This document shows, one piece after another, positions 5,262-62,681 of a stretch of 64,000 nt of DNA; position 1 is the first letter of the stretch; each line of letters begins with the position of its first letter. The stretch comes from Candidatus Omnitrophota bacterium (lineage in GTDB: Bacteria; Omnitrophota; Gorgyraeia; JABMRN01; RBG-13-46-9): contig JBDRHE010000059.1 of assembly GCA_043817155.1 (NCBI GenBank), positions 97 to 64,096 on the forward strand, written 5' to 3'. A model generated the notes under the pieces. That model did no database searches, had not been told where the DNA came from, and was given only the letters and a program-made list of their open reading frames with translations. The position numbers and the translations under genes are program-made.

Positions 5262-6788
5262 CTACCCCTTCATTATATTAGTGCGTTCTGCCTTCTTCCT
5301 TGTTATGCTAAGAATTAAAACCTTAAGAGATATTGTGAGAGCTCTTTTAAATATTATAAGGAAAAATTTTGTGAAGGCTAACAAGACATCCGGCTTAAAA
5401 TACCACCTCTTCGGTAGCGATAGCACGCCTCCGCCGGATAGGGGTGATTTAAAGAGCATCTTATATAAGATTCGCGGTCTAAAATAGAACGTTAAGTTAG
5501 CCACGATCGTATCGAATATAAGGACCGGTGGATGTGTATCTTTAGGAACATACGACAAATCATCACCCTGCATATAGTGTTGGTTGCTGAAATTGGTCCA
5601 ATTCTCATGAATATGGAGCCCATTCTCCTCTTTGCCTATCCTAAAAAGCTCTGTGCCCGGATAGGGTATCGCGATGTTGAATCTGGCGCCATCAAGAGGC
5701 AGCTTGCACATCAATTTTAGCGTATCGTAGCGGTCTTTCCGTGTTTCCGACGGTAAGCCAAATATTAAAGATGCATCCGCTAAAATACCGACTTCATTAC
5801 ACATCTTTATGGCTCTCAGGTTATCTTCTACCAGCTCTTTTTTGTTAATAATTTTCATAAGACGCTCTGATCCGGTTTCAACGCCAAATGCCAAAGATAC
5901 AAAATTACAATCTTTAAGCCTTTCAAGCATCTCATAATCAACCTCTTTGCCCCTCGATGTGCCGATAAAGGCGACTTTCTTGTGGTATCCGCTGGCTATT
6001 ATCGCGTCCAATAATTCATACAGTCTTCTTTTGTTTATTGTAATACTGTCATCTATAAACCATATCTTCTTCTGGCCGTATCTATCAACAAGTTTTTTTA
6101 TATCCTCTACTATGCGCGTAGCGGAATAAAATCTATATGCCTTTCCGGATATTGCCCTTTGAGAGCAGAAGATACAATCGAATGGACATCCCCTTGAGCT
6201 TATGATCGTCCCAAAATCTCCATAGCTCTCACTGTCTTTTTCAAACAATTCATAATAAAACGGAGGAAGATCGTCGAGATTCTTTATCAGCTCTCTATCT
6301 GAATTATGAAAAACCTTAGAATCTGTTTTATATGATATGCCTTTAATATCTTTATAATCTTTTCCATTTTTGAGACATTCATAGAGTTCGCCGAGTGTCA
6401 GCTCCCCTTCCTTTCTTACGGCTACATCAGCTCCGGATTTAATAAGTATATCTTCGGGCAGAACACTCGGGTGTATCCCCCCTAAGACAACAGTCACTTT
6501 CGGATCGATAGATTTTACCATCCCTGTAAGCTCGATAACCCTCTTTGTCGTAATAGTGAGATTCGGGATTCCCACAATTCTGGGATGTTTTAATTTTGCA
6601 AGCTCGCCTTCCAGTCTATCCTGTGTCAACTCAACGATCTGCTCATCGATGACACCCACCTCATCTTTATTCTTCTCACGAAGATATGCCCCGAGAAAAC
6701 CGATGGATGTCGGAAAACAGGCGTATGTAAATTTCTTAACAACTGTTGGCTGCGATATTTTATCTACGGCGGGATTAATGAATAACAT
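5262..6788 (-). CDS. Cobalamin-binding radical SAM enzyme (class B-like)
   Basis: N-terminal B12-binding-like Rossmann region (VVLGGIHPSVLPED) followed by SSRGCPFDCIFCSQ; GGAGG-like RBS upstream. Confidence 0.8.
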   Translation of the reverse strand: MLFINPAVDKISQPTVVKKFTYACFPTSIGFLGAYLREKNKDEVGVIDEQIVELTQDRLEGELAKLKHPRIVGIPNLTITTKRVIELTGMVKSIDPKVTVVLGGIHPSVLPEDILIKSGADVAVRKEGELTLGELYECLKNGKDYKDIKGISYKTDSKVFHNSDRELIKNLDDLPPFYYELFEKDSESYGDFGTIISSRGCPFDCIFCSQRAISGKAYRFYSATRIVEDIKKLVDRYGQKKIWFIDDSITINKRRLYELLDAIIASGYHKKVAFIGTSRGKEVDYEMLERLKDCNFVSLAFGVETGSERLMKIINKKELVEDNLRAIKMCNEVGILADASLIFGLPSETRKDRYDTLKLMCKLPLDGARFNIAIPYPGTELFRIGKEENGLHIHENWTNFSNQHYMQGDDLSYVPKDTHPPVLIFDTIVANLTFYFRPRILYKMLFKSPLSGGGVLSLPKRWYFKPDVLLAFTKFFLIIFKRALTISLKVLILSITRKKAERTNIMKG

Positions 6789-6806
6789 TATCCTCTACCT
6801 TTCTAT

Positions 6807-7553
6807 CTAATGTTTCTTTCCTACACATATGAGACCAACGCCAAACGGAAAATTTATAAACTTGAGCATCTTTGACTCAATTCTCAATATGCGATATAGA
6901 ATCTTATTTAGAAGCCGCGGCACATAAAAAACATCGAGTAAAAATCTATCTTCTTTCGGTGCGCAAAAATAGCCGTATCTCTGCATTATCCTTATTGCCG
7001 CTATACCCGGGAACAGAAATGAATTCACATAACTCAGCTTCTTTATACTGAAATCGCTCTCTTGCATAATTTGTTTTAAGCTTCGACTCGTATATCTCCT
7101 CTTGTGATGAGCAAGATCGTCGTGGCGGCTCCATAAAAACTGGAAAGCGGAAGTCAATATAACGAGATGTCCGTCCTTCTTAAGGATCCTGTGCATCTCC
7201 TTAAGGAACGCCTCCTCTTTCGCGATATGTTCGATCAGACAAAAAGCTATAATGGTAGAAAATGAGTTGCGTTTAAAACCGGCATTCTCGGCTGATGTCC
7301 TTACCAGGCCGCGTATACCCCTTTTTTTGCAGAAGGCAACGGCTTCCTCTGAAATATCCGCCCCGTATACATTCCCGAAATGTCCCAGCGTCCTGGTAAG
7401 CCCTCCTGTCCCGCATCCGATGTCCAGAATCGCTACATCTTTCTGACTCGTGCAGAACCTATTGAGCATATCACCGCACATCCGCCTCATGCCCATGGTC
7501 CACCAGTGATCCTTTTCGAATTCGTACCACTGTTTATATATATCGGATTCCAT
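6807..7553 (-). CDS. Class I SAM-dependent methyltransferase
   Basis: Motif I VAILDIGCGTGGLT; post-I acidic GADISEEA; N-terminal HWW typical of this MTase subfamily. Confidence 0.8.
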   Translation of the reverse strand: MESDIYKQWYEFEKDHWWTMGMRRMCGDMLNRFCTSQKDVAILDIGCGTGGLTRTLGHFGNVYGADISEEAVAFCKKRGIRGLVRTSAENAGFKRNSFSTIIAFCLIEHIAKEEAFLKEMHRILKKDGHLVILTSAFQFLWSRHDDLAHHKRRYTSRSLKQIMQESDFSIKKLSYVNSFLFPGIAAIRIMQRYGYFCAPKEDRFLLDVFYVPRLLNKILYRILRIESKMLKFINFPFGVGLICVGKKH

Positions 7554-7571
7554 GCATGCACCTTAAGAAGA

Positions 7572-8420
7572 TTACAGATCTGAGTAATTTATCAGCACAA
7601 TGTTATTAAGGCCGACTATCTCTTTCATTTCTTCGCTCATAAGAAGATCGTATTCCCGCACCCAATCGCAAGCCCACCCGTGTAAGTCCTTCAAAAACCC
7701 GTATCTTTTGCTGATCTCAAGGTTGTCGCTACCTGGATGAAAACCTATTTCCGTAACCCCTGGTCCGATGCGCGGTAAAACACGCCTCATATAAGAAGCA
7801 TCCATATTCCCGCTTCTAAAAAACCCGAGGAATCGGTCGGGACTCCGGTATCTTGTCTTGCGCAATACATTAACATATCTCGTAAAAAATGCAAATCCTA
7901 TCTTCACAAGATCGATTTCGCGATATTCATACCACGGAATATTAAGCGCCCTTATCCTTTGGACGCCATATTTTTTCAACAATGGGCTTAATATCTTAAA
8001 AATCGGCGGAAAAAAGTGAATGTGCTGATGACTGTCCAGATGCGTGGGCACGAGTCCTGAATCGATAAATCTGGCTATCTGAGTTTCGCATTCCACTTTG
8101 ATATGCTCCGGATTGATCTTTCGCTTAAATATCTTTGCGCATAGCTTAGAATAGTCTCCGGGTAACCTGCCGTTATCCTCGACTATCGACGGTATCTTTT
8201 CAGCCGGAGCAAGAGGCCTCTCTCCGGTCAATATAAGGTGAACTCCCACACCAAGATCTTTGTTTCTTTTTGCTATAGCTACGGCATCTTCGAATTCCTC
8301 GCCGTTGACTGCCAGTGATGCGCTCGTCAACATGCCCTCTCTATGCGCTTTTTCAACAGAAGTATTGATAGACACGTGCAATCCGAAATCATCCGCGTTT
8401 AAAATTAGACGTTTCTCCAT
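7572..8420 (-). CDS. ChbG/YdjC-family carbohydrate deacetylase (HpnK-like)
   Basis: LILNADDFGLH ... HLDSHQHIH motifs characteristic of the YdjC family; start set at MEKRLIL immediately after the upstream stop. Confidence 0.7.
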   Translation of the reverse strand: MEKRLILNADDFGLHVSINTSVEKAHREGMLTSASLAVNGEEFEDAVAIAKRNKDLGVGVHLILTGERPLAPAEKIPSIVEDNGRLPGDYSKLCAKIFKRKINPEHIKVECETQIARFIDSGLVPTHLDSHQHIHFFPPIFKILSPLLKKYGVQRIRALNIPWYEYREIDLVKIGFAFFTRYVNVLRKTRYRSPDRFLGFFRSGNMDASYMRRVLPRIGPGVTEIGFHPGSDNLEISKRYGFLKDLHGWACDWVREYDLLMSEEMKEIVGLNNIVLINYSDL

Positions 8421-8422
8421 CC

Positions 8423-9244
8423 TTATTTCCTTCTGCAAATTACGACCTGAAGTATCCCATCTTTGCACAATGTGGATAAAAAGAATATTATGCGAACAGC
8501 CGCCATATATAAAAACTTTGTAACGATACCGGACACCGGGTAATCAACGGCACGCGCGGGATGATTGTGATTGCGATGATCAACAATATCGAGGTCGTTC
8601 ATTATCATGAGCGTTCTGAGCGAGTTATTCGAAAAACATTGAAGGTGGTGCAGGTCATATAATCTTTTATATGCTGCGCTGATCCCTGCCCTTTTCAGGA
8701 CTCGCGCGATCCTGTATATCATGCTATCGTCATTATCTGTGACTGTAAACATGATACCGTCCGGCCTCAATAGATTTTTCATTCTTTTTACAAAGGAATG
8801 CGGCGAATCGAGATGTTCGACAACCGTAATATTGCAGATGACGTCAAAAGTATCTTCAATCTCGCTATTCATAATGTCGCCCTTAATATAATGTATACCC
8901 GGATCGTCGTTATCCGTTAGATCGATTCCATGGAGTTCGAACGCGGAATGCCTCTCTTTTAGATACTTCAGGAAATCTCCTCTGCCGCATCCGACATCGA
9001 GGATTCGAAGAGGCCCCTCGCCTTTAAGCCCTATTATCTTCTTACGAATAAGTTCAAACAGTTTGAAATCCGGGTTGCTAAACCAGTTCTTGTGGGAATC
9101 TGAAAAATAATCATCCCCGTATTTTTCCTGCTTTTCTTTAGGCATATCTTTAAAGATATGGCCACACGAAGCGCACCTATGAAGACTTAGGTCTTTGTCC
9201 TCCGGCGTTATCGAATTATGATTATGACAAATGCTACACTGCAC
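8423..9244 (-). CDS. Class I SAM-dependent methyltransferase with N-terminal Zn-ribbon
   Basis: CSICHN...CASCGH zinc ribbon; ILDVGCGRGDFLKYL motif I; VCNITVVEHL motif. Confidence 0.75.
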   Translation of the reverse strand: MQCSICHNHNSITPEDKDLSLHRCASCGHIFKDMPKEKQEKYGDDYFSDSHKNWFSNPDFKLFELIRKKIIGLKGEGPLRILDVGCGRGDFLKYLKERHSAFELHGIDLTDNDDPGIHYIKGDIMNSEIEDTFDVICNITVVEHLDSPHSFVKRMKNLLRPDGIMFTVTDNDDSMIYRIARVLKRAGISAAYKRLYDLHHLQCFSNNSLRTLMIMNDLDIVDHRNHNHPARAVDYPVSGIVTKFLYMAAVRIIFFLSTLCKDGILQVVICRRK

Positions 9245-9249
9245 TTTTG

Positions 9250-10233
9250 CTATCCACCGTATTTAAGCTCATCCTTTTTCGCGGGTCTTTGAGTCTCTTT
9301 TGCTATAAAGACCGGGCGATTCTTCGTCTGATCGAATATCCTGCCTACGTATTCGCTCAAAATTCCGATTGTCATAAGCTGTATACTTCCCAGAAAGACA
9401 ACAGCCATCGCCAGAGTCGTCCATCCCGGCGGCATCGGCACAGGAAATATATTGAATATCTTTAGAATCCATATAAGAAGAACTAAAAATATATAAATAA
9501 CTGACGCGCTGAATATGATGAGGCTAAGCAGCATAATAAGATGCAGCGGGTATTTGCCGAACGAAAATATGCCGTCAAGCGCGAGATTGTAGAGCGCCTT
9601 GTAAGAGTATTTGGGTTTGCCGCTGTATCTTTTTTCAACGGTATAAGGAATGCCTATTTGCTTAAAGCCTACCCACCTCACTTGTCCGCGCAAAAACTTA
9701 TGGTATTCCGGCATCTTCAATATTACATTCAGTACCTCCCTGTCAATGAGCCTGAAATCAGACTGTCCAAAATGTAATTCCAGACCCGATATCTTCGATA
9801 TAAACCAATATGCTGTTTTGATGATCCTGTATTTAATAAATGGCAGGTTGGCATTCTTCTTTGTCGTATACACAACTTCGGTCCCTTTCCTCCATAAATC
9901 TATCATTTGAGGGACAATAGACGGCGGATGCTGCAGATCTGCGTCCATGGTAATCACAGCATCGCCCGTGCAATGCATCATGCCGGCAAAGATGGCGTTT
10001 TGGTGGCCAAAGTTTCGTGAAAGTGAAACGTACCCTACTTTCACGTCGCCTCTCTTCAACCTCTTAATTATTTCAATCGAATTGTCTGTACTGCCGTCAT
10101 CCACAAAGATCATTTCGTAGTCAACGTTGGACTGCGAGCATGCCTGCTTAACCTGCGCATAAAGAACCTCTATATTGTCTTCCTCATTAAACACGGGAAC
10201 GACAACTGAGACTTTAGATATGATATTCTTCAT
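9250..10233 (-). CDS. GT2 polyprenyl-phosphate glycosyltransferase (Dpm1/ArnC/GtrB-like) with C-terminal TM helices
   Basis: VVVPVFNEEDNI...MIFVDDGSTDNS...DADLQHPP motifs; two C-terminal hydrophobic helices. Confidence 0.8.
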   Translation of the reverse strand: MKNIISKVSVVVPVFNEEDNIEVLYAQVKQACSQSNVDYEMIFVDDGSTDNSIEIIKRLKRGDVKVGYVSLSRNFGHQNAIFAGMMHCTGDAVITMDADLQHPPSIVPQMIDLWRKGTEVVYTTKKNANLPFIKYRIIKTAYWFISKISGLELHFGQSDFRLIDREVLNVILKMPEYHKFLRGQVRWVGFKQIGIPYTVEKRYSGKPKYSYKALYNLALDGIFSFGKYPLHLIMLLSLIIFSASVIYIFLVLLIWILKIFNIFPVPMPPGWTTLAMAVVFLGSIQLMTIGILSEYVGRIFDQTKNRPVFIAKETQRPAKKDELKYGG

Positions 10234-10264: not shown

Positions 10265-11794
10265 TTACAGTTCAAATGCTTTTTCGATATTCTCTTCGGT
10301 AGCCTCACAAAAAAACATACTCTTATATTTGTCGGCAACAGCGCGTATCTTCTCGGGCTCATTTTCCAATAAATATTCGATTTTTTCTATTTGCCTTCTC
10401 AGTTCTTCGGGGCTTTTTACTTCTTCCCATATGATACCTTTTCCATACTCCGAAAGCGGGTTGCTGTAATCAAATTGCTTGGTTCCCTTAACCGATATGG
10501 AAGGTATGCCGATACTGGCAGCCTCCACAAGTACGCTGCTGGCGGCGCTTACGACAGCTTTCGCGGTTTTAAAAAGCTTGTAGGTATCTTCGTTCGTCAC
10601 CGTCACGTACGGGGGTATGCGAGACATGAATTTTTCTACCGGTAAAGCCGGATGAGCCTTAAGGAGAATGTTTTGCGAACGGAGGTCCGCGTCAGAAAGC
10701 ATTTGCAGTATATTGTCGGCCTCTTCCTTGAAGCATGGCAGTAACACGACGATGTTCTTCTGGTCTTCTTTCTTCACTACGACATCAAATACTTTCGCGG
10801 ACCGTAAAGACGGTCCAAGCGCGTAATTTAATCTGGTTCCCTCCGGAATATAACTTGGGCCATTGGCGATGATCTTATCGGGTATCACTCCGAAAACCTG
10901 TTCATCCTCATCGGGCAGAATGTACAGATAATCCCTCGGATGTAAGAATAGCTGCGCCCCGTAGATACTGGCCTTCCCCGGTTTTGTCCTAAGGCCCATG
11001 TACAAATTTTTGTGTATGGGTTGATTCTCATACCAGCTTATCAGCTTGATCTTCTCGTAAGGCAGCGTAAGGAGCCTTTTGCCTAAAAGATAGCGTGAAA
11101 AACTGTAAAACGTTACCTGTCCCAGTGTCTCTATTAGTTCGTGCCTGATCAACCTCTCTTTATAGGAGCCTCGTTCCAGTGTTTTTGAAAATCTTAATAC
11201 GCGAAAAGGATACGCAAGCATAAAAATTAAAAGGCTCCGAAGATCGCCAAGCGATAGCATCTGGAATTCGGTTACGATAGGCACCTTCTCCTTCTTTAGT
11301 ATACGGAGGGCATCGTATAACTCGAAGGGTCTTTTATAATAAGAGGCGCTGTAAAAAAACGGGATATAAGCAAAATGCTTATTTTTTTTCTTGAGGACCG
11401 CCTCGAGGCCCGGAAAATAAAAATCATGAAAGCCTTGTGATATTTTAATGCTTTCGATTATAAAACAGATATCAATGGCGATAAGCTCCTCCTTACCGCC
11501 GTCAGGATAAAAACGCAGGCCGGATAAGTAATATTCCAAAAACTTTAAAAGATACATAGCCAAATGCAGGAAGCTTTTAGCGTAATACGTGAAAAGTTTA
11601 CAGGTGACTACCCACCACGGTACATTCGGAAAATCTTTTTTATTCAAAAAGTTACTGATGAAATCATTATTTACGGGGTTTTTGCTTAAAACCTGGTTTG
11701 ATATTAAAAAGATGTCTTTGTATGCCTCCTTATTAATCGAAGATATCGCTTCGTAGGCGGCTTTTATTTCATCTGGCATATTGTTTGTGTCCAT
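10265..11794 (-). CDS. Hypothetical protein, possible CDP-alcohol/CMP-sugar-dependent GT-B-like transferase (TagF or KpsC/S-like)
   Basis: No diagnostic motif recognised with certainty; alpha/beta C-terminal region; context only. Confidence 0.3.
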   Translation of the reverse strand: MDTNNMPDEIKAAYEAISSINKEAYKDIFLISNQVLSKNPVNNDFISNFLNKKDFPNVPWWVVTCKLFTYYAKSFLHLAMYLLKFLEYYLSGLRFYPDGGKEELIAIDICFIIESIKISQGFHDFYFPGLEAVLKKKNKHFAYIPFFYSASYYKRPFELYDALRILKKEKVPIVTEFQMLSLGDLRSLLIFMLAYPFRVLRFSKTLERGSYKERLIRHELIETLGQVTFYSFSRYLLGKRLLTLPYEKIKLISWYENQPIHKNLYMGLRTKPGKASIYGAQLFLHPRDYLYILPDEDEQVFGVIPDKIIANGPSYIPEGTRLNYALGPSLRSAKVFDVVVKKEDQKNIVVLLPCFKEEADNILQMLSDADLRSQNILLKAHPALPVEKFMSRIPPYVTVTNEDTYKLFKTAKAVVSAASSVLVEAASIGIPSISVKGTKQFDYSNPLSEYGKGIIWEEVKSPEELRRQIEKIEYLLENEPEKIRAVADKYKSMFFCEATEENIEKAFEL

Positions 11795-11801
11795 GTGCGT
11801 T

Positions 11802-12443
11802 CTATGTCTCTAATATCTGTTTCAAATTTTTCAAATCCTTGACTTTGACACAATCTATACCGGCGAAAATGGAGCCGTTATCGTTGATCTTCGCGATAAA
11901 ACGCGCGGCGTTTTCCTGCGCGGCTCTATAATCGCTTATAGCGTCTCCGATATATACGGCCCTGGCAGGCTCGATTCCTTCTTTCTTGATGATCGATCTG
12001 ACCATATCGGTTTTTTCATCCGGAGCGCCATAGACACCTTGAAAAAAGCCGTTCAATTTTCGCCTCCGGACAATTTCTCGTATTTCATCTTTTGGCGTTG
12101 CCGATAGCACAAAGCACTTATATTTTTCAGAATACTGTTCCAAAAATTCTCTCGCGCCTTTTACATACGGGCATAAGACCACGTCTTCCATAACAAGATC
12201 GGAGAATTTCCTCGAAAGATCCCGAAACGTATCCTCGTCTAACGGTCGCTTAAGCATCTCTTTGTATATATATATAAATTTTTCATACCGCGATACACCC
12301 TCATGAGCCAGATGGTAATCAACCACTTCCTTCACGATTCTTTCGCCCTCATCTTCAAAGAGCCTGGCAAATGCATCGCGCTTGATATTAAGTGATTCCA
12401 CTATGACACCATCGAAATCAAAAAATATTACCTCTGTATTCAT
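11802..12443 (-). CDS. HAD-superfamily hydrolase (HAD-IA phosphatase)
   Basis: FFDFDGVIV motif I (DxD); YIGDAISD motif; start at the internal Met that abuts the upstream stop. Confidence 0.75.
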   Translation of the reverse strand: MNTEVIFFDFDGVIVESLNIKRDAFARLFEDEGERIVKEVVDYHLAHEGVSRYEKFIYIYKEMLKRPLDEDTFRDLSRKFSDLVMEDVVLCPYVKGAREFLEQYSEKYKCFVLSATPKDEIREIVRRRKLNGFFQGVYGAPDEKTDMVRSIIKKEGIEPARAVYIGDAISDYRAAQENAARFIAKINDNGSIFAGIDCVKVKDLKNLKQILET

Positions 12444-12444
12444 A

Positions 12445-13365
12445 TCACGCCTCGACCGGCCCTTCTTTAACAACGAGCCCATCATGCGTAGAATGCTTAT
12501 TAAGTTCCTCATAAACACTCTGAATGCATTTCAGGATTCCCTGCCCTAGATCAAAATATGATTTACTGACAATCCTTTTCGCCATCTTGGGGGCAAAGAC
12601 ATAGGGCGTTATCTCGTAGTGGTCCGTTTTTCTGGGCGGTCTATATTCGATCTCGATCTTGTTACCCAACATCTCCTTTATCATAAGGAGGAGATCCTTT
12701 ACTTTCATCTGCTGGTTGCCGGTGATAATGGCGTATTGATTGCGATATTCGTCATCAAGTATATCGACGCTTGCCTTTGCCGCATCGTGCACATGAATAT
12801 ATTCGCGTATCTCTTCGCCGTCACCCAGTCTCACAACCTTATTTTCCTGAAGGGCTTCCTTTATCTTCGTGTAGATAAAGTTCCTTTCATCAGCCCGCGG
12901 TCCGTAAAGCGACCCGTAACGAAGTATGGTATACGGAATTCCAAAAATTTCGTTGTAGTCTTCCGCGATAGATTCGCATGCAAGCTTTGTGCTCCTATAA
13001 AACGAGCCTGCCTTGCTGTAAACATAGAGCGAACTCGCGAACACAAAACGCTTGACACCGGATTTGCGGCATGCTTCCAGGATAATGGAATTTCCCAGAA
13101 TATTTGATTTTATGCTGTCCAGAGGCCGTACGCTCGCTTCTCCTATATCGGATATGCCCGCAAAATTATATACAACATCGCACCCTTCGATTGTGTTATG
13201 CACTTTTTTTTCGTCAAGTACATCGCCAAGCACCATTCCCTGAGACTTCTGCAGATATGGCGAGGCCTTAAGGTCGTATATTACAACCCCGTGCCCGGCT
13301 TCCGACAAGACATCAGCAACATGGCTCCCCAGAAAGCCGGAACCTCCAAAAACTGCTATCTTCAT
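12445..13365 (-). CDS. NAD-dependent epimerase/dehydratase (extended SDR)
   Basis: MKIAVFGGSGFLGSHV Rossmann motif; YxxxK region YRSTK. Confidence 0.8.
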   Translation of the reverse strand: MKIAVFGGSGFLGSHVADVLSEAGHGVVIYDLKASPYLQKSQGMVLGDVLDEKKVHNTIEGCDVVYNFAGISDIGEASVRPLDSIKSNILGNSIILEACRKSGVKRFVFASSLYVYSKAGSFYRSTKLACESIAEDYNEIFGIPYTILRYGSLYGPRADERNFIYTKIKEALQENKVVRLGDGEEIREYIHVHDAAKASVDILDDEYRNQYAIITGNQQMKVKDLLLMIKEMLGNKIEIEYRPPRKTDHYEITPYVFAPKMAKRIVSKSYFDLGQGILKCIQSVYEELNKHSTHDGLVVKEGPVEA

Positions 13366-13369
13366 ACTA

Positions 13370-55348: not shown

Positions 55349-56285
55349 TGCTTATGCCCTTCCAGTTTGCCGCGACACGTTCTATGCAATCTGAAATTGG
55401 CGTAAAACCTATATCAGTTTCTCGTACTAATCGCTCTGTGCGCATGCTGGTATTCTTGGGACGCATAGTATTGAATCCGATTTCGTCTAATGAAACTCGA
55501 GAGATCTTACGGGTATCGCATCCCAGCGCTCTTGCCATCTCTATTGCCAGATCATACCGCGACCACCTCTCGGGCGAGCATACATTTACTACCCCGCAAA
55601 TCCCCCTGCTTTGCAGATCTGCCACCACCCTGACCAGATCTGATCTAAGCGTGGGGCAGAATATCTGATCATGGGCAGCCCTGATAGTACCGCCGGACAT
55701 AAGGATCCCTGCCATCTCGTCAAGCAGCGTGCCATCGTTTCTATTTAGCGAAAAGATCTTGCTCAGACGGATAATCAGGTAGTTTCCTTCGGTAATTTCG
55801 TCTATCTTCTTTTCAACCTCGGCCTTATGCCTGCCATACTCTACTATGGGAGATCTATCTGATTTATCCCTATAACCGCCTGAATAGCCATCAAATACAC
55901 AATCGCTCGAAGTAAATATGGGTTTCATACCTGAAGCAGCAAGTTGTCTAATAAGCTCAAGGGTACCATCAACATTAACTTTTCTGCTAAACTCCTTATT
56001 CTTTTCGCATTCAGAAATATCCGTGATCCCGGCAAGTATGAGAGCGTCTTTATAGCCTCTCTCCTTAAGCTTGAGACGACTTGTGTTCACCTCGAGAAGA
56101 TCCAATCGAGAGTCGCTTTGCTCTTCCTTTCTGCGAACTGTGCCTACACAATCTCGATGACTGGTCCGATAAGCTTCGAAGAAAGCAGAACCTAAATACC
56201 CGGACCTGCCTATTATTACGGTCTTGGGCAGTTCCAGTGGCAACTGCAAGTCGCTTAGTTTCTTTGCACCCTCTTTTATAAACAC
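55341..56285 (-). CDS. RmlD-like NAD(P)-dependent sugar-nucleotide reductase (SDR fold)
   Basis: VIIGRSGYLGSAF Rossmann motif; YGRHK (YxxxK); overall RmlD_sub_bind-like organisation. Confidence 0.6.
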   Translation of the reverse strand: MFIKEGAKKLSDLQLPLELPKTVIIGRSGYLGSAFFEAYRTSHRDCVGTVRRKEEQSDSRLDLLEVNTSRLKLKERGYKDALILAGITDISECEKNKEFSRKVNVDGTLELIRQLAASGMKPIFTSSDCVFDGYSGGYRDKSDRSPIVEYGRHKAEVEKKIDEITEGNYLIIRLSKIFSLNRNDGTLLDEMAGILMSGGTIRAAHDQIFCPTLRSDLVRVVADLQSRGICGVVNVCSPERWSRYDLAIEMARALGCDTRKISRVSLDEIGFNTMRPKNTSMRTERLVRETDIGFTPISDCIERVAANWKGISNE

Positions 56286-56289
56286 GCTT

Positions 56290-57051
56290 CTACTCCTTTA
56301 TAACATACGCTGCCGGGGCATTGGTCCATGACAGTGTCTTAATCTTGAATCCCTGCTTTCCCCCGAAAAACTCATCAACGGCTCTCGTCTCTCCTTGCCA
56401 TTCCGGCATCGAATATTCATCAAATAGCATAAGGCCGCCTGGCGAAAGAATCGGCCAGAGAGATTGGAGGGCCACTTTTGTAGGTTTATAAAGATCGCAG
56501 TCAAAATGAATCAATGAAAATCGAACCCCGCTATTTTCATTGACGAAATTAGGAACGGTCTCTTCTATGTCGCCCCTTACGAGTTTTATACGGGATTTCC
56601 ACGGTATAAATCTGTCCTCGTCAAATATCGCGATCGCCTCCCGGAGCTCCTCATAGTATTTGTCCGGGCTGAATCCTCCTTCAAACTTTTCAACCTCATC
56701 GGCGCTCTTGCCATCCTCAGGAGCAAGTTCACCAAAACCTTTCCAGTTATCGAACCCATAAACGACCTTCGTGCGGTCACCGATACAATAGGCCTCCAGA
56801 AGATTGGCCCAGGTCATAAGACCTAGGCCCCTGAAAACTCCGAGTTCCGCGATATCTCCTGGAACCTCAAGGGTCTTCTTGAAGAGTTCCGCATGCGCCA
56901 GGAATCTCTTGAGCCATTGCCTGCGAGCCAAAACGGGAAATAGCTTAACTGCATTCAAGGGGTCAATATGAAATTTCCGGCAGAAGTCCTCTATTCTGTC
57001 CTCTATGCTGGAATCCACCCCAGTCTTCTTAAATCCGTCAAACTCTCTCAT
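56290..57051 (-). CDS. Class I SAM-dependent O-methyltransferase, TylF/MycF (macrocin-OMT) family-like
   Basis: IAELGVFRGLGLM motif I; acidic residues D...D typical of metal-dependent sugar O-MTs. Confidence 0.55.
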   Translation of the reverse strand: MREFDGFKKTGVDSSIEDRIEDFCRKFHIDPLNAVKLFPVLARRQWLKRFLAHAELFKKTLEVPGDIAELGVFRGLGLMTWANLLEAYCIGDRTKVVYGFDNWKGFGELAPEDGKSADEVEKFEGGFSPDKYYEELREAIAIFDEDRFIPWKSRIKLVRGDIEETVPNFVNENSGVRFSLIHFDCDLYKPTKVALQSLWPILSPGGLMLFDEYSMPEWQGETRAVDEFFGGKQGFKIKTLSWTNAPAAYVIKE

Positions 57052-58057
57052 ATTTAGCAGCCTCCTTCAAATTGAATATATTGTACGCGTCTAATGGTTT
57101 AGGCCTATCTACGTTAGGCATAATATACGTATCAATAAACTCCTTGCTCTCCCCGCACAAACAGGACGGGTATTCCCCGTTAAACCAGGCGCTGCTTAAT
57201 AAACTTTCGCGCATCTCGCCAAGTGTTTTGTCGCGAATATTTCCAAGTGTAAACTGCATAAAATTGCAGGGAAGAAAGTGTCCGTCTGCAGATAACGCCA
57301 TAAATTCAGTGCCCGCAGGACAGTGGTCTTTCTCTCCGGAGTATATATCCCTATTCACCATTCTCTGCCCGTTCTTTAGCACCGGGGAATCTATCTGGAG
57401 TTGCTTAATATATCTGGAGTCTTCGGGGTTTACAAGGAGCTCTCTTCTGCCATCCCACTTGCCCCACGGCTCCGCTATCTGTACCTCCAGTCGTATACCT
57501 TTGGACTTAGCGTATTCATATGCTTTCTTAAAGCCGGTGTTATATAGCGATTTGTGCGTTACAACAATAGAGATTGAAACCAATAGCCCTTCTGACAACA
57601 CATAATCTATAGATTCAAGCACCCTCTTATAAGAGCCGGTCCTCCTGTTTGCATCATGTTCCTCCTCTATACCGGAATCGAGACTGAAAGCGATCTTATC
57701 AACCTTGAGACTCTTAAGCCAACGAATCTTATCCAGAGACATATTCCATCCGTTTGTAACGACGTTCAGATAGGTCTCGTCCGGATAACAAGAACGCAGT
57801 ATCGTTTCAAGGCGTTCAGGATCTTCAATCGGCTCGCCTCCCTGAAATACATAGTGGAATACTCCCAGGTTATATGCTTCGTCCAAAGTACTCTTCAATA
57901 TGTTCATTTCTACAGGCTTTACATGTGCAAAGGTTTCGGCGTAACAGTGAGTACACCTCATATTGCAGCGGGGAGTAACGTCAAGCGCAATAGTCCTTAA
58001 GGCCCCATTCTTATGTTCGTATTGCTTTTTATGTAACCTATTTTTTTCAGAATACAT
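57038..58057 (-). CDS. Radical SAM / SPASM-domain enzyme
   Basis: TPRCNMRCTHCYAE; C-terminal CPAGTEFMALSADGHFLPCNFMQF...CLCGE. Confidence 0.8.
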   Translation of the reverse strand: MYSEKNRLHKKQYEHKNGALRTIALDVTPRCNMRCTHCYAETFAHVKPVEMNILKSTLDEAYNLGVFHYVFQGGEPIEDPERLETILRSCYPDETYLNVVTNGWNMSLDKIRWLKSLKVDKIAFSLDSGIEEEHDANRRTGSYKRVLESIDYVLSEGLLVSISIVVTHKSLYNTGFKKAYEYAKSKGIRLEVQIAEPWGKWDGRRELLVNPEDSRYIKQLQIDSPVLKNGQRMVNRDIYSGEKDHCPAGTEFMALSADGHFLPCNFMQFTLGNIRDKTLGEMRESLLSSAWFNGEYPSCLCGESKEFIDTYIMPNVDRPKPLDAYNIFNLKEAAKYERV

Positions 58058-58070
58058 GCCTTACTTCCTC

Positions 58071-59180
58071 TTAAACAAATTCCAGGTGTTCTCTATCCTG
58101 TTCTAAATATTCTAAAACAAGCTTGTTCTTTACATTCGCCACACAGTGATGGTTGCATGCCGCTCGGGGATCAATTTTAAAGAATTTGCTTTTATCCAAA
58201 AACCAGAAATCCTTAAACCTTCTCTCTTTTATAGATCCGATCAAGCCGTCTTTCAGGTTATATGCTTTGTCCTGGCACGGATATATATTCAGGTCTGCGC
58301 CGATGACAGGGAGAATCTGAAGATACGGACACCATGAATACTCTTTGTTGAATCTCTCTTCAAGGGTATGGTATGAATCGTTTATCTCAAAACCATCATC
58401 GGCAAAGTCATTCACCATTCTCCCGATCGCTTCTTTAACCGTATCAAATATGGAACTGTGATAAAGATTGTTCTCTGCGCCGTCATTGCTGACAATACAG
58501 GGTGAGATCTTCACATTATCTATTCCAATATCCTTAAGTCTTTTGACAAATTGGTATATATGAGCAGCGTTAACCCTATCGACTATTATGCTGACGCCCA
58601 GAATGCATTTGCCGCCCAATTTTTTGAAGCGCTCTATATTACTCATTACCTTTGCAAATTCCCGCCTATCCACACCCCTGTATCCGGAGTAGCTCTCTTC
58701 ATCCCACCCATCCATTGAGACACGAAGCCATGTTCCGTAACGCGCAAAGATCGCAGCCAAATCGCCATCCAACAGTGATCCGTTCGTCAATGCTGCAAAT
58801 TTGACCGAGCTCGATCGCAACCTGTTAATAGCTTCCGTAAGGTGAGGGTAGCAGAGGGGTTCCCCCCCTCCGCTAAAGGTAACGGACTTAACCCCCATCT
58901 CTACTATGTCATCCAATATCTCCATCACTTTCTCCCTGGGAATCTGGTCTCTCCTATTCATATCCTTCCCGAGTTGCAGCCCGTCCACCCTGTATGCACA
59001 ATATCTACAATTGTGATTACATATGTTTGTTGGCTTTATCCTTATATGGATGGGGTTCATCACCCTGTCTACAGAGGGCGAGAGAGAGTCTATCTTATCC
59101 ATATAATGGAATATCTTAAGATTCGAGTATATAACCTTCTTATGACAATTCCTGTTCCTAGTCGAAGTATATGAACTCAT
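58071..59180 (-). CDS. Radical SAM enzyme with C-terminal Cys-rich (SPASM/twitch-like) region
   Basis: TNICNHNCRYCAY; C-terminal CPYLQ...YPCQD...CNHHC; start uncertain, one candidate Met follows an AAGGTGAT RBS-like sequence. Confidence 0.7.
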   Translation of the reverse strand: MSSYTSTRNRNCHKKVIYSNLKIFHYMDKIDSLSPSVDRVMNPIHIRIKPTNICNHNCRYCAYRVDGLQLGKDMNRRDQIPREKVMEILDDIVEMGVKSVTFSGGGEPLCYPHLTEAINRLRSSSVKFAALTNGSLLDGDLAAIFARYGTWLRVSMDGWDEESYSGYRGVDRREFAKVMSNIERFKKLGGKCILGVSIIVDRVNAAHIYQFVKRLKDIGIDNVKISPCIVSNDGAENNLYHSSIFDTVKEAIGRMVNDFADDGFEINDSYHTLEERFNKEYSWCPYLQILPVIGADLNIYPCQDKAYNLKDGLIGSIKERRFKDFWFLDKSKFFKIDPRAACNHHCVANVKNKLVLEYLEQDREHLEFV

Positions 59181-59820
59181 AATCACCTTTATATCCAAAC
59201 TCATTAAACAACCATATCCACTCTTCGGGTCTAAAGAATCCCTCGCAAGTAAGCGCCCAGCACTGGAGGTTCGTAAGCTCCTCCTCGGTTCTATAGCTCT
59301 CAACTGCTATGTATTTATATTTACCGACCCTCTCGATCTCCTTCAAAGATGACTTTAGGTCGTTTATAAGAAGATTGTGCAGGGTTGTTATGGATATTAC
59401 AAGATCAAACTCTCCGTCCTTAAATGGGAATTTATCCTCGGCCCTATATACAAAGAGAGACTCCCTTATCTCCTCCTTTGCATTCTCTATGGCATATTTT
59501 GAAACATCGAAACCCATAACGCTTGACAGCGGAAGTAGCTTTTTAAACTCATAAAGCAGAAAGCCCTTTCCGCAACCCACATCCAGGATCCTGGCCTTTT
59601 GGGGAAGACCATACAACTCTTTAAGTCTCTCCGCGACAACGCTCCAGCGCCCGTCGTATCTGTACCCGCCGTAGCCATACCTTCTCTCCCCATCCCAGTA
59701 TTCTTTCCCATATTCCCTGGCGGTCTTCATACATCCGGCTTTACTGTTTGCCATTCTACCTGTATAGTCTCTTTTTGTCTTCTTATGCAACGGGTTTATT
59801 GCGCTAATCAATCTTCCCAT
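59158..59820 (-). CDS. Class I SAM-dependent methyltransferase
   Basis: ILDVGCGKGFLLYEF; MGFDVSKYAIE; start uncertain (several in-frame Met between 59754 and 59847). Confidence 0.7.
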   Translation of the reverse strand: MGRLISAINPLHKKTKRDYTGRMANSKAGCMKTAREYGKEYWDGERRYGYGGYRYDGRWSVVAERLKELYGLPQKARILDVGCGKGFLLYEFKKLLPLSSVMGFDVSKYAIENAKEEIRESLFVYRAEDKFPFKDGEFDLVISITTLHNLLINDLKSSLKEIERVGKYKYIAVESYRTEEELTNLQCWALTCEGFFRPEEWIWLFNEFGYKGDYEFIYFD

Positions 59821-59857
59821 AAGGCCCTCTCTTCTCTTTAAAACCATTATCCTTTTG

Positions 59858-60907
59858 CTAAACAACCTTATCGCCTTGAGAGCGGGGCATATTCTGGACA
59901 TAACCACCCCCGTGGGTTGTAACCGCAAACTTTCCAAGGCACAAATTAACGAGCTCCTCAAAAGATGATTCACAATCCTTTATCTTTTGATATGCTCTCG
60001 GGATCCCATGTAGATCTACTCTATTACGGGCACGCAATCGGCCGACTTCGGCAAATCCTATTTTTGGCAATAACTTGTCATAATTAATGGAATGGCGAAG
60101 TGGTTTCAGCTTGGAGCTATCTCTTATGTAGAGATATCCTCCTTTACGCAGTACCCTGGATGTTTGAGACATGAGCCATAGAATGCCTGCAGAATTTATT
60201 TCGTTAAGTACCCATGTCGCGGTAATAAGATCTATAGAGCCACTCTCAACGATACCAAAATGCCATGACGGAATATGCTTAAGTCTATATTCAGGATGTT
60301 TGTTTACAAGCGCTTTGATGGAACTCTCGCTTAAGTTAAAATTCTCACATTCAACGACATCCAGATATATCGCTTCACCTCCTGACAAGAACCTGAAGAA
60401 GTCGCGTTGGATCGAATAGCTGTGCGGACTTGCTTCAAGGGCGTAAAAGTTAGAATCGAATCCTTTCCGACTATAAACGGCATGCGTGCCAAGACCCGGA
60501 CCAATGTCCAGATGGTTTATAGGAGAGCTTATTCCCCCACAAAAACTGCGCAATGCGCAATAATCCTGTGCCCTCACTACAGCATTGCACGTAACGCTCT
60601 TCTTGAAATCGTCTTCCATATCGCTTGGGAACGGAACGAAATGACGATATGCTTTAGATAGACACTCTTCGATGGTCCTTAGCATTTCATCATAGTCATC
60701 TGTCCTTATTCTCTCGGGTGTGGGGTACTGCTCAAAGAACATTGTAAGATACTGCAGGAATGCCTGCGGGCCATGAACAACCTCCACTTTTGACAGCTGA
60801 TCAGCATCAACCCAGGAGAACGGATTACCTATGCGATGTAGCTTCTCGCCATACGCCCAGCCCTGGCTTATAAAGGCCCTATTCAACGAACGAATAATAT
60901 CTTCCAT
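59858..60907 (-). CDS. Class I SAM-dependent methyltransferase
   Basis: HLDIGPGLGTHA motif I; LRKGGYLYIRD motif. Confidence 0.65.
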   Translation of the reverse strand: MEDIIRSLNRAFISQGWAYGEKLHRIGNPFSWVDADQLSKVEVVHGPQAFLQYLTMFFEQYPTPERIRTDDYDEMLRTIEECLSKAYRHFVPFPSDMEDDFKKSVTCNAVVRAQDYCALRSFCGGISSPINHLDIGPGLGTHAVYSRKGFDSNFYALEASPHSYSIQRDFFRFLSGGEAIYLDVVECENFNLSESSIKALVNKHPEYRLKHIPSWHFGIVESGSIDLITATWVLNEINSAGILWLMSQTSRVLRKGGYLYIRDSSKLKPLRHSINYDKLLPKIGFAEVGRLRARNRVDLHGIPRAYQKIKDCESSFEELVNLCLGKFAVTTHGGGYVQNMPRSQGDKVV

Positions 60908-60920
60908 ATAACTCCTTTGA

Positions 60921-62681
60921 TTACTGTATGCATCTTACCTTCTCTGACCCATCTACAGCCAGAGCCGAGAGAAAATGCCTGAAGACCAGACCGCTTAAAC
61001 TGACACCTGAATCATTAATTCTATTCAAGAATCGATCATATAATTTACTATAGAGCAACCTATAACGCCCATAGGTACTATCGAAAAAGCTACTTGCTTC
61101 CTCTCTCAATCTCTCATCCGTACAATCATCCGATATGAGATCTATTATGTTGTTGAAGTACTCATATTGCCGCTTGCCCACTTCTTTATTTAGTTGTTCG
61201 TAGTTATTCTTAAACTGCAGATACTCATCTTGCAACATTTCAAAAACCTTTCGATTCATCCTGTTAGTCATCCTTGCGATCAGGTTGCCTATATTTGTCT
61301 GTAATGAGTGTACTTCCCTGGTATTGGGAAAACGCACCAAGAGACTCTCCCAATGACCGGTAACGCGCGCCGCCAGTGGATCCCTTATCTTATACTTTGG
61401 CAATTCCCAGTGCCTGCCTGTTTCAATTACCCTCCCTTCTCTTTTAAGCCGATCATAGATCTCGGAATCCCGGATAAGCATTAAAACATTCGAAACAAAA
61501 TTTATATTGTCCGTAAAATCATATTTATGTAAAAATTCAATATTCTCTCTAAGCGTCTCCTCCGTAGAGTTTGGCCCAAACATAATGAAACCTGTTAATA
61601 CATAAAAGAGGTCGAGATCCCTTAAGATCTTTGCGGTGCGATGATTGTCTTCAACTGTTGCCTTCTTTCCGTAAAGCTTGATCTCACTATCGTTGGCAGC
61701 GTCAGATCCAATGATAACGACATCGACCCCTGCCTCCTTATATAGCTTTAAAAGCTCAATATCCTCTTCGCCCCTCCATGAATCACAGCGCAGATAGACC
61801 TTTGCGGAAAAGGGAACCCCGCGCCTTATAATGCCTTCGCAGATACGGCGCGATCGAACCTTCCCGAGTTTACCCGGATCCTCAAAGGAACTATCAGAAA
61901 AATTGAATACCCTGGCGCTGTAACGCTTGCTTAGGTACTCTACCTCATCGATTACCCTTTCCGGCGATCTTCCTCTCCACCTCTTACCCGCATGAACCTT
62001 GTGATAAAAGTTGACTGCGCAAAAACTGCAATTGCCTACACAGCCCCTGGAACTTATCATGCGCACACTCTCTATAAGACCGCCATCTACTAAATCCCTC
62101 TTTGCGTCTTCCAAAAGATCCCTTGCCGGAAAAGGTAATGTATCCAGGTCCTCTATAACGCATCTCTGCCTGTTTCTTATGATGTCGCCCGATTCATTTC
62201 GCCACACAAGCCCGTCTATCGAGTGGAGATCAGTTCTCTTGGCCCCTACTGCCTTTAATAGCTCCAGGGTCGTTACTTCACCTTCCCCCAAGATTATGAA
62301 ATCGTAAAGAGGTTCTTCTTTTAGTATCTCTTCCGACTTCGAGCACAGAAATGGGCCGCCAAAGATCGAGATCGACTCTGGTCTTACCGATTTGATCTTT
62401 GCGACTACCGTCCGAACCGGATGGTAATTTACCGTATTCAGCTGAAACCCATATATGTCCGCTGAGATCCCGGTTATCTCATTCTCATCGGTGATTAAGG
62501 CAAAAGTGTCACCCTCTCTTCTTACAAAGCATTGCTTGAATATTACATTATATTCCTGGTCTCTTAAGTACGCACCTACGCAAGCTATGCCGAGGGGAAT
62601 CTCCTGTTCATACTGGTAGTCGCCTTCTGTAACGACATTCATCATAGCAACTGTTAGATTGCGCGCACTCATACCTTGCAA
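60921..62681 (-). CDS. Cobalamin-binding radical SAM enzyme
   Basis: B12-like N-terminus (ISIFGGPFLCSKSEE); SSRGCVGNCSFCAV. Confidence 0.8.
   Translation of the reverse strand: MQGMSARNLTVAMMNVVTEGDYQYEQEIPLGIACVGAYLRDQEYNVIFKQCFVRREGDTFALITDENEITGISADIYGFQLNTVNYHPVRTVVAKIKSVRPESISIFGGPFLCSKSEEILKEEPLYDFIILGEGEVTTLELLKAVGAKRTDLHSIDGLVWRNESGDIIRNRQRCVIEDLDTLPFPARDLLEDAKRDLVDGGLIESVRMISSRGCVGNCSFCAVNFYHKVHAGKRWRGRSPERVIDEVEYLSKRYSARVFNFSDSSFEDPGKLGKVRSRRICEGIIRRGVPFSAKVYLRCDSWRGEEDIELLKLYKEAGVDVVIIGSDAANDSEIKLYGKKATVEDNHRTAKILRDLDLFYVLTGFIMFGPNSTEETLRENIEFLHKYDFTDNINFVSNVLMLIRDSEIYDRLKREGRVIETGRHWELPKYKIRDPLAARVTGHWESLLVRFPNTREVHSLQTNIGNLIARMTNRMNRKVFEMLQDEYLQFKNNYEQLNKEVGKRQYEYFNNIIDLISDDCTDERLREEASSFFDSTYGRYRLLYSKLYDRFLNRINDSGVSLSGLVFRHFLSALAVDGSEKVRCIQ

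Follow-up and report, generated by a model that had tools for sequence, protein, structure and literature searches.

Six genes in a 64-kb stretch of DNA from a Candidatus Omnitrophota bacterium (contig JBDRHE010000059.1; this whole stretch is called the window) encode radical S-adenosylmethionine (SAM) enzymes that carry a cobalamin (B12)-binding type domain at their N-terminus. Judged by their sequences the six are old, separate subfamilies that have been gathered in one locus. The explanation that we favour, to which we give roughly even chances, is that this is a mosaic surface-glycan locus made of modules, each with a B12-type radical SAM enzyme that would C-methylate sugar intermediates.

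Six radical SAM enzymes with a B12-type domain

The window belongs to a parent contig of 137,462 bp from a metagenome-assembled genome (MAG), of which the remaining 73 kb lie beyond one or both ends of the window. Open reading frame (ORF) analysis of the whole window revealed an array of 55 co-directional genes on the minus strand, from 63613 down to 820, and all features given below lie on this strand. Twelve of the 55 genes encode radical SAM proteins, six of the B12 type and six without a B12 domain. We numbered the former by increasing coordinate: gene 1 (5262-6788) encodes a protein of 508 aa, gene 2 (16691-18184) one of 497 aa, gene 3 (27427-29097) one of 556 aa, gene 4 (31354-32811) one of approximately 485 aa, gene 5 (47320-48780) one of 486 aa and gene 6 (60921-62672) one of 583 aa, of which about 190 aa form a C-terminal extension.

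The proteins were compared with Pfam profiles at gathering cut-offs of 32.1 bits for the B12-binding domain (PF02310) and 29.5 bits for the Radical_SAM domain (PF04055). Both domains scored above cut-off in six of six proteins, at 40.4-55.9 bits and 65.1-90.7 bits, respectively (49.4 and 90.7 bits for protein 1). An initial annotation of this DNA had placed six ORFs here and had read them as class B radical SAM enzymes with a B12-like N-terminal domain followed by a radical SAM core. All six ORFs are present at the given positions, on the minus strand. The architecture was borne out by the Pfam domains, and the B12 signature, which might have proved absent in a profile search, was present in all six. 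The annotation covered all six B12-type genes and overlooked the six radical SAM genes that lack the B12 domain.

A CX3CX2C motif was found once in each of the six proteins, approximately 200-225 residues in (CPFDCIFC at residue 201 of protein 1). The form (S)RGC-x3-C-x-F-C that had been given for it describes five of the six, while protein 4 reads GRGCPFDCPYC with Y in place of F; in protein 2 the motif begins with DRGC. Across 37 family sequences GG and GEGE of the Rossmann domain as well as RGC...C..C are invariant. In the classical cobalamin fingerprint, DxHxxG-SxL-GG, the final element is this GG.

Two of the translation starts had to be moved. While the start of gene 2 at 18184 is correct, since its homologues have 494-497 aa, the longest ORF of gene 4 extends to 32865 but the true start is probably the GTG at 32811, because a GGAGGA Shine-Dalgarno sequence is found and homologue alignments begin there. 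Gene 6 starts at the ATG at 62672, as the NCBI protein has 583 aa.

Separate families rather than local duplicates

The pairwise identity among the six proteins is just 18-31%. They are therefore not in-situ duplicates, a recent tandem duplication is ruled out, and the term paralogs, which had been used for them, holds only loosely. In a joint alignment the mean identity was 47-70% within families across phyla and 18-30% between families. With each family having its own neighbours elsewhere, this contradicts the earlier idea of diversification in situ. At least four of the six belong to separate families whose orthologues in other phyla are 44-74% identical, and each of these families has a conserved gene module of its own.

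A large protein homology search covered genes 5, 2 and 6. Gene 2 has more than 2000 homologues, the best 120 of which are 55-74% identical and come from Omnitrophota, Thermodesulfovibrionales, Parcubacteria and Methanoperedens. For gene 5 more than 800 were obtained, with 60-71% identity for the best 120. Homologues of gene 6 with 44-59% identity occur in Omnitrophota, Clostridia, Nitrospirota, Magnetococcales (including Magnetofaba australis) and Brocadiaceae. Archaeal orthologues were found for gene 2 at 54-56% and for gene 5 at 56% identity. The homologues of genes 5, 2 and 6 are labelled BchE or YgiQ in the JGI annotations, which misnames these proteins. Such an accumulation of B12-type radical SAM genes had been called very unusual for a cell-surface glycan; this is appropriate with respect to characterised biology but not with respect to sequence space, where hundreds to thousands of environmental homologues exist.

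For gene 4 the closest cluster representatives are 58, 51, 51 and 48% identical. Matches to it at E<=1e-3 comprise about 2 in 100,000 cluster representatives of a library of 1.84 billion proteins. Since they are so rare, six such genes among 55 adjacent ones are not due to chance. Three relatives of gene 4 (P0365, P0379 and P0466) are domains within very long proteins of 2088, 1400 and 2279 aa; these lengths fit the multi-enzyme giant proteins with radical SAM domains that were reported in Omnitrophota (bioRxiv 10.64898/2026.06.07.730766).

Conserved gene neighbourhoods

Comparison loci are denoted by L numbers (e.g. L001 for 'Ca. Wujingus californicus', L084 for a Thermodesulfovibrionales contig and L030 for Scalindua), and a name such as '46586 type' refers to homologues of the window gene that starts at this coordinate. 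The family of gene 5 is linked to nonulosonic-acid operons. Taking one genome per species, orthologues with at least 51% identity (51-69%) were found in Omnitrophota, Scalindua, Nitrospinota, Planctomycetales and Bathyarchaeia. In all of these groups except Nitrospinota they are flanked by genes for NeuB, NeuC, DegT, PglD and CBS-NTP_transferase proteins. The NeuB, NeuC and DegT genes are found in L001, L005, L007, L008 and L009; NeuB itself was not detected in L004, and the Nitrospinota locus provided just weak NeuB- and DegT-like matches. According to Pfam, the Wujingus operon begins with a 4,6-dehydratase-type epimerase, DegT, PglD, NeuB, Epimerase_2 and CBS-NTP_transferase, continues with the orthologue of gene 5, CTP_transf_3, a class III aminotransferase, a short-chain dehydrogenase/reductase (SDR) and a sulfotransferase, and ends with a HisF-HisH fusion, a WbuX-like gene and a 676-aa protein without assigned family. 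By these domains the operon appears to match a legionaminic-acid-type pathway: the loci of gene 5 orthologues carry Pfam domains that correspond, in operon order, to the full set of LegB/C/H/G/I/F and PtmE.

The window retains the block of gene 5, cytidylyltransferase, HisF, HisH and WbuX. Its CTP_transf_3 cytidylyltransferase (46586-47308) is 42-59% identical to its counterparts, which lie within 300 bp after the gene 5 orthologue in six of seven species. It is followed by a HisF-like gene (45702-46589, Pfam His_biosynth), a HisH-like gene (45035-45718, Pfam GATase) and a WbuX amidotransferase gene (43803-45032), which scored 361.6 bits against the TIGR03573 cut-off of 203.2. A CBS-NTP_transferase gene (38335-39399), labelled PtmE-like on account of its domain pair, is 40-42% identical to those in the NeuB operons L001, L004, L005 and L007, and a PseF-like CTP_transf_3 gene (37665-38303; Pfam and NCBIfam) lies beside it. 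The WbuX, HisH, HisF and CBS-NTP_transferase genes and the cytidylyltransferases are thus shared with the legionaminic and acetamidino pathways. Known legionaminic pathways in turn lack the radical SAM enzyme, the sulfotransferases and the carbamoyltransferase that are all present in the window. Homologues of a further Radical SAM/SPASM gene (34854-35852, Pfam), 26-41% identical, are found near B12-type radical SAM and NeuB genes in L010, L011 and L089.

Gene 2 is part of a second conserved module. Between the window region 10265-31390 and L084 a synteny of 13 genes with 45-72% identity was observed, the order in L084 being GFO, Ldh_2, CTP_transf_3, GT2-CTP_transf_3 fusion, SPASM, gene 2, CTP_transf_3, SDR, 14283 type, 2-hydroxyacid dehydrogenase, epimerase, HAD and a 509-aa protein. 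The core of SPASM radical SAM gene, gene 2, CTP_transf_3 and SDR was found again in a Methanoperedenaceae archaeon, where NeuB lies 5 kb upstream, and on a third, metagenomic contig, where its order is rearranged (core seen in L084-L086). The cytidylyltransferase gene paired with gene 2 (15951-16694) is 64-72% identical and at most 50 bp away from the gene 2 orthologue in three of three loci. Two Radical SAM/SPASM genes (18177-19211 and 19193-20326, Pfam Radical_SAM and SPASM) lie upstream of gene 2, and the 18177 type stands beside the gene 2 orthologue with 70% identity in L084, 47% in L085 and 43% in L086.

Orthologues of gene 3, 57-60% identical and from metagenomes, occupy a slot between Ldh_2 and a CTP_transf_3 or methyltransferase gene on three contigs. 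Since the same module exists without gene 3 in Thermodesulfovibrionales (L084) and Scalindua (L030), gene 3 is an optional add-on. The module further comprises a CTP_transf_3 gene (25390-26133, Pfam) and a GT2-CTP_transf_3 fusion (24016-25383, Pfam), the types of which are 56-69% identical in L084, L089 and L030; in L089 the 25390 type begins 5 bp after the gene 3 orthologue. The fusion itself, 62-69% identical on a metagenome contig and in Thermodesulfovibrionales and Scalindua, comes after a separate CTP_transf_3 gene each time; it is unusual for a single protein to combine the activation of a sugar with its transfer. Overall the B12-type radical SAM gene adjoins a cytidylyltransferase gene in three of three loci for gene 2, in six of seven species for gene 5 and in the one informative locus for gene 3.

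Gene 6 has conserved neighbours both on a metagenome contig and in Magnetofaba australis, namely the split transketolase, a 59158-type methyltransferase, a 58071-type radical SAM gene and an RmlD-like reductase. In the window the C-terminal half of the transketolase (62669-63613; Transket_pyr and Transketolase_C, 244 bits with the NCBIfam transketolase model) lies directly upstream of gene 6, and the end of the N-terminal half, identified by translation, follows at 63610-64000 where it runs off the window. The same pair adjoins the gene 6 orthologues in L087 and L088. The radical SAM gene 58071-59303 (Pfam) is 48% identical in L087 and 37% in L088, and a Radical SAM/SPASM gene (57038-58057, Pfam) lies next to it. 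L088 also carries HldE-like and GmhB-like genes. There are hints that the gene 6 branch concerns a heptose or another higher-carbon sugar. The 58% relative of gene 4 is located between GT2 genes, near Wzy_C, GT1 and UDP-glucose dehydrogenase genes.

The genes around gene 1 form a putative lipid-linked-sugar module, as judged from their domains. They comprise a GT2 (9250-10233) with best scores of 270 bits for PgfS and 171 bits for the undecaprenyl-phosphate Ara4FN transferase (ArnC-like), a YdjC gene (7572-8468) that is flanked by two methyltransferase genes (8423-9244 and 6807-7553), and a GT-C gene (2815-4806, PMT_2) with 11 hydrophobic segments. Protein 1 itself has one C-terminal hydrophobic helix with a transmembrane-like segment at 468.

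Stacking of such genes is not restricted to the window, as other Omnitrophota loci also contain three or four of them. In L060 (1650-7849) the order is GT2, B12-type radical SAM, YdjC and two further B12-type radical SAM genes, and L070 holds four B12-type radical SAM-like genes in 21 kb together with NeuB, CTP_transf_3, an ABC exporter and a 10265-type protein.

Sugar-gene content of the locus

The initial annotation had described the surroundings as a sugar cluster, which is well founded given the cytidylyltransferases, the WbuX/HisH/HisF set, the glycosyltransferases and the NeuB/NeuC/DegT/PglD operons that contain the gene 5 orthologues. The inventory of the window comprises five CTP_transf_3 cytidylyltransferase domains and the WbuX/HisH/HisF acetamidino set. 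It further includes about ten class I methyltransferases, two sulfotransferases and one NodU-like carbamoyltransferase, as well as two ABC exporters, GT2 and GT-C glycosyltransferases and one TIGR04372 glycosyltransferase; weak matches were obtained to the surface-carbohydrate models TIGR04326 and PFTS. The five CTP_transf_3 domains are mutually divergent (24-37% identity), which suggests several CMP-activated ulosonic-type sugars. This content suggests that the locus makes a heavily decorated exported or surface glycan.

Relative to other genomes the locus contains insertions, i.e. gene 3 with a methyltransferase, a block of unk653, ABC and SPASM genes, and gene 4 between the 677-aa protein and GFO. 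These insertions argue for a modular assembly.

Family profiles and structural comparison

None of the six proteins reaches the cut-off of any curated NCBIfam family. The best partial scores were obtained with BchE, HpnJ, ApyD and MJ_1487 and amounted to at most 41% of the cut-off. For protein 1 these were 179 bits for BchE, 176 for ApyD and 170 for HpnJ, all far under the cut-offs. Among the methylase models the best of the six reached 125 bits for PhpK (cut-off 600), 114 for QCMT (360), 94 for the RiPP C-methyltransferase (282), 86 for KedN5 (700), 98 for HpnR (650) and 30 for TsrM (500). The curated libraries searched contain no GenK or Fom3 model. An assignment to BchE (TIGR02026) was rejected on account of scores of 83-179 bits against a cut-off of 481, an identity of 27% between an annotated bchE and gene 1, and the absence of pigment genes from the window.

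The best sequence matches in the PDB were AprD4, QCMT (9CCB; PMC12931638), OxsB, TokK and CysS. An AlphaFold2 model of protein 5 had a pLDDT of 90.2, and its closest folds in Foldseek were MgmA/QCMT (8.6e-24) and AprD4 (1.4e-23), followed by TsrM, OxsB, CysS and TokK; with the exception of AprD4 the top folds all belong to class B enzymes. MgmA/QCMT, the closest solved structure, aligns with protein 5 over both domains including the GG...GEGE region. It differs by its protein substrate, an identity of about 22% and TIGR04014 scores of at most 114 bits against 360. The protein 5 profile aligns through the Rossmann domain with the cobalamin binders QCMT (60-381), CysS (48-225), TokK (62-217) and OxsB (82-342), whereas it matches AprD4 in the radical SAM core alone (171-392).

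Proposed chemistry and modular pathway

Because the profile matches cobalamin binders through the Rossmann domain and GG and GEGE are invariant, we favour true cobalamin enzymes. C-methylation, though unproven, would be the most likely chemistry, since most characterised B12-type radical SAM enzymes are C-methyltransferases, including the sugar methylases of gentamicin biosynthesis (PMC12931638). In each enzyme SAM would be reductively cleaved at the [4Fe-4S] cluster, and the resulting 5'-deoxyadenosyl radical would take a hydrogen from an unactivated sp3 carbon of the sugar intermediate. Methylcobalamin, bound in the N-terminal Rossmann domain, would then pass its methyl group to the substrate radical, and a C-methylated sugar would result.

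Fom3 provides a precedent for the substrate, as it methylates a CMP conjugate that is supplied by the cytidylyltransferase Fom1 of the same pathway (PMC8158854). Genes 2, 3 and 5 usually adjoin a cytidylyltransferase gene in a similar manner, which points to CMP-linked or about-to-be-activated ulosonic acids; their substrate would most likely be an ulosonic or nonulosonic acid or its CMP ester. Fom3 differs in that it methylates a phosphonate, while the cytidylyltransferases of the window are CTP_transf_3 proteins of the NeuA/KdsB/PseF type. A phosphonate pathway was rejected, as the window holds no PEP mutase or other phosphonate gene. GenK/GenD1, Fms7 and MoeK5 have the B12 Rossmann domain, the CX3CX2C core and the sugar setting in common with the six, and like these enzymes the six would presumably attack unactivated sp3 carbons. 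GenK-type enzymes act on antibiotic pseudo-oligosaccharides in actinomycetes, in contrast to the nonulosonic-acid, CMP-sugar and lipid-linked-sugar modules of uncultivated anaerobes considered here.

According to our proposal one co-directional locus of about 63 kb was put together from sugar-tailoring modules, at least five in number; four of these are also conserved, each by itself, in other phyla. Module E (820-10233), with the ArnC-like GT2, an HpnK-like deacetylase, gene 1 and GT-C, would provide a polyprenyl-phosphate-linked amino sugar. Module A (10265-19211) comprises the SPASM radical SAM enzyme, gene 2, cytidylyltransferase, SDR, 2-hydroxyacid dehydrogenase, epimerase and HAD, and module B (20304-31390) GFO, Ldh_2, gene 3, methyltransferase, cytidylyltransferase, the GT2-cytidylyltransferase fusion and an ABC exporter. 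Gene 4 (31354-32811) stands between modules B and C, beside the 677-aa gene 32808-34841. Module C (38335-48780), with gene 5, cytidylyltransferase, HisF/HisH/WbuX, sulfotransferase and CBS-NTP_transferase, may represent the legionaminic-acid-type nonulosonic-acid branch, and module D (51512-64000 and beyond) contains the split transketolase, gene 6, methyltransferases, two radical SAM enzymes and the RmlD-like reductase. Class I methyltransferases, sulfotransferases, the carbamoyltransferase and WbuX/HisH/HisF would add decoration before the products are transferred by GT2 and GT-C enzymes and exported.

Several observations weigh against C-methylation in a surface-glycan locus. The highest partial scores belong to the non-methylating BchE and HpnJ models and not to methylase models. 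For protein 5 MgmA shares the place of closest fold with AprD4, a dehydratase of sugar 1,2-diols that works without cobalamin, and a Rossmann-like N-terminal domain does not guarantee cobalamin binding, as seen for the look-alikes AprD4 and ArsL (PMC12931638). No enzyme from these six families is characterised. An Rfam scan of the window revealed no cobalamin riboswitch or other RNA family. The NeuB, NeuC and DegT genes of the legionaminic pathway are absent from the 64-kb window of the 137-kb contig. Only the transferases and exporters point to the cell surface as destination. The contexts of gene 4 are heterogeneous, two of its other relatives being in uninformative surroundings or near Bac_transf. 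For gene 1 no orthologue was found (at most 29% identity in a plasmid tblastn search and 36% in the comparison loci), leaving it without comparative context, and the HpnK-like deacetylase two genes away favours an HpnJ-type ring contraction for it.

Alternative explanations

This ring contraction leads to the alternative that survives best, which we nevertheless consider doubtful: some or all of the six may be cobalamin-dependent enzymes that do not methylate but rearrange sugars, contracting the ring so that a carbocycle or cyclitol results, in the manner of HpnJ with hopanoid-linked glucosamine or of OxsB with a deoxynucleotide. The case is strongest for gene 1, where a HexNAc loaded by the GT2 onto a lipid carrier would be deacetylated by YdjC and rearranged by enzyme 1 before its transfer by the GT-C. 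The Hpn pathway counts in favour, with GlcNAc-BHT made by HpnI, GlcN-BHT by HpnK and the cyclitol ether by HpnJ (PMC12324291), and the trio of GT2, YdjC-family deacetylase and B12-type radical SAM gene recurs around gene 1. YdjC has HpnK (TIGR03473) as its best match over the full length, the HpnJ model is among the top three for protein 1, which also has the C-terminal hydrophobic helix, and L060 repeats the gene order with GT2 and YdjC; moreover, for five of the six proteins the best partial scores come from the BchE and HpnJ models. The scores are nevertheless far from the respective cut-offs for HpnJ (TIGR03471, 87-170 against 577.6 bits), and also below for HpnK (187.3 against 232.6 bits). 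Partial scores weigh little with the BchE and HpnJ models, since both of these are generic, long COG1032-like profiles. Pfam scans of the window provided neither squalene-hopene cyclase nor HpnH, and no hopanoid genes are present. In addition, the two methyltransferases that flank YdjC make the module methylation-rich regardless. The GT2 near gene 1 also differs from the Hpn pathway, since its ArnC/PgfS-like type implies a polyprenyl-phosphate acceptor, and a GT-C follows as in the Arn pathway.

It is unlikely, in our estimation, that the Rossmann domains bind no cobalamin and that the six are AprD4-like dehydratases or oxidoreductases on sugar diols, with neighbouring NAD(P)-dependent reductases finishing the reaction as AprD3 does. 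AprD4 acts on an amino sugar in the C3' deoxygenation of apramycin, is paired with a reductase and is close in sequence and fold, being the best PDB sequence match for proteins 2 and 5 and the second best for protein 1. A 15180-type SDR gene accompanies the pair of gene 2 and cytidylyltransferase in three of three loci, and the cobalamin-free look-alikes mentioned above provide a precedent. The sequence similarity to AprD4 is however limited to the radical SAM core, while the Rossmann domain aligns with true cobalamin binders, scores above the Pfam cut-off in all six and has GG and GEGE invariant. The AprD4 model (NF033070) yielded just 26-95 bits against 500, and working without cobalamin sets AprD4 apart from the chemistry that we propose for protein 5.

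Still less probable is that the product of the locus or of parts of it is no cell-surface glycan but a secreted small molecule, for example of the aminoglycoside, nucleoside or phosphoglycolipid type, for which the radical SAM enzymes would be natural-product tailoring enzymes. The known sugar-acting B12-type enzymes are from antibiotic pathways (PMC12931638), and the density of tailoring enzymes with two ABC exporters resembles biosynthetic gene clusters. Pfam and NCBIfam searches of the window however found no scaffold-forming enzyme of these classes; they found the five CMP-sugar-type cytidylyltransferase domains, WbuX/HisH/HisF, ArnC-like GT2, GT-C, TIGR04372 and the weak TIGR04326 and PFTS matches, and the relatives carry NeuB operons, Wzy_C and Polysacc_synt flippases.

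That the enzymes modify peptides (RiPP-type, as PoyB/PoyC) or lipids (ladderane, tetraether or hopanoid) and stand among sugar genes by coincidence is hardly credible: there are partial scores to ApyD, RiPP C-methyltransferase and ladderane-type lipid models, and SPASM proteins with ABC exporters are typical of RiPP loci, but all such scores are far under the cut-offs, the exporters lack a peptidase domain, small ORFs resembling a precursor were not seen, the single ORF in a gap being that of a 141-aa Cys-rich protein, and all neighbours conserved across phyla are enzymes of sugars or nucleotide sugars. A RiPP cluster was rejected on these grounds.

Layout and further features of the locus

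The array is compact, with only three intergenic gaps of more than 60 nt, and its GC content is even along the window (0.42-0.47). It continues upstream past 64000, the last 390 bases being the end of the N-terminal transketolase half. Three window proteins were found at 100% identity in the search listing (NCBI MFH1593914, MFH1593939 and MFH1593952), and the offsets between their gene numbers equal our ORF count. Two pairs of longest ORFs overlap considerably, 13370-14464 with 14283-15155 by 182 nt and 58071-59303 with 59158-59973 by 146 nt. Shorter homologues exist for both (302 aa in L084 and 354 aa in L087), and such long overlaps point to true starts further downstream for 13370-14464 and 58071-59303.

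Four of the six additional radical SAM genes carry SPASM and two Fer4_12. One of the latter (1712-2815, Pfam Radical_SAM 103 bits), next to the GT-C gene, reaches no curated NCBIfam family. The 455-nt gap between gene 1 and the GT-C gene contains the candidate 141-aa Cys-rich ORF (4767-5192) with the sequence CKKCGCCGY, for which Pfam provided no match. The two ABC exporters (20304-22088 and 48777-50546) have fused membrane and ATPase domains (Pfam ABC_membrane and ABC_tran), are 29% identical and lack a peptidase domain according to Pfam.

Sulfotransferase genes are located at 41321-42349 and 50571-51515; another is part of the Wujingus NeuB operon (L001 14335-15306), and the gene 6-type locus L088 contains an APS kinase (14862-15389). 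Together, sulfotransferases and APS kinase suggest sulfated sugars.

The locus also encodes large conserved proteins. The product of 32808-34841 (677 aa) shares 44% identity with the gene that closes the NeuB operon of L001 and L004, and has a paralogue in 39380-40594. For 32808-34841, 22085-24046 and 10265-11794 no meaningful Pfam, NCBIfam or PDB sequence match was obtained, and for 39380-40594 and 42346-43686 no Pfam or PDB match. The 10265-11794 protein is 45-46% identical in L084 and L070 and shows a weak TIGR04326 match. An AlphaFold2 model of 32808-34841 from an alignment of two sequences had a pLDDT of 32 and was not usable. We regard the 32808, 39380, 22085, 10265 and 42346 proteins as candidate transferases for modified sugars.

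Implications for nonulosonic-acid and surface-glycan biosynthesis

To our knowledge the characterised sugar-acting B12-type radical SAM enzymes all come from antibiotic or hopanoid pathways, and none from nonulosonic-acid or surface-glycan biosynthesis. Our literature search found no paper that joins 'radical SAM' with 'nonulosonic', and the few that join radical SAM with 'legionaminic', 'pseudaminic acid' or 'O-antigen' seem irrelevant by their titles and abstracts. While the superfamily is known, the families described here, their nonulosonic-acid and CMP-sugar setting and their conservation across domains of life are uncharacterised.

As a tentative generalisation, uncultivated anaerobes of several phyla, along with some archaea, may produce nonulosonic and ulosonic acids that are C-alkylated or radically rearranged by means of conserved pairs of a cytidylyltransferase and a B12-type radical SAM enzyme, with the Omnitrophota locus stacking several such branches. 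The lineages concerned are Omnitrophota, anammox and other Planctomycetota, Nitrospirota/Thermodesulfovibrionales, Bathyarchaeia and Methanoperedens. If true, this would represent a branch of sialic-acid-like sugar biosynthesis without characterised precedent and, for Omnitrophota, a surface glycan with multiple radical-derived sugar modifications. Large families in defined operons offer concrete starting points for tests of new sugar structures and radical chemistry: the legionaminic-type operons of gene 5 imply a specific substrate, and gene 6 has a carrier with a species name, Magnetofaba australis. The finding would thus bear on how the cell envelope is constructed in Omnitrophota, anammox bacteria and methane-oxidising archaea.

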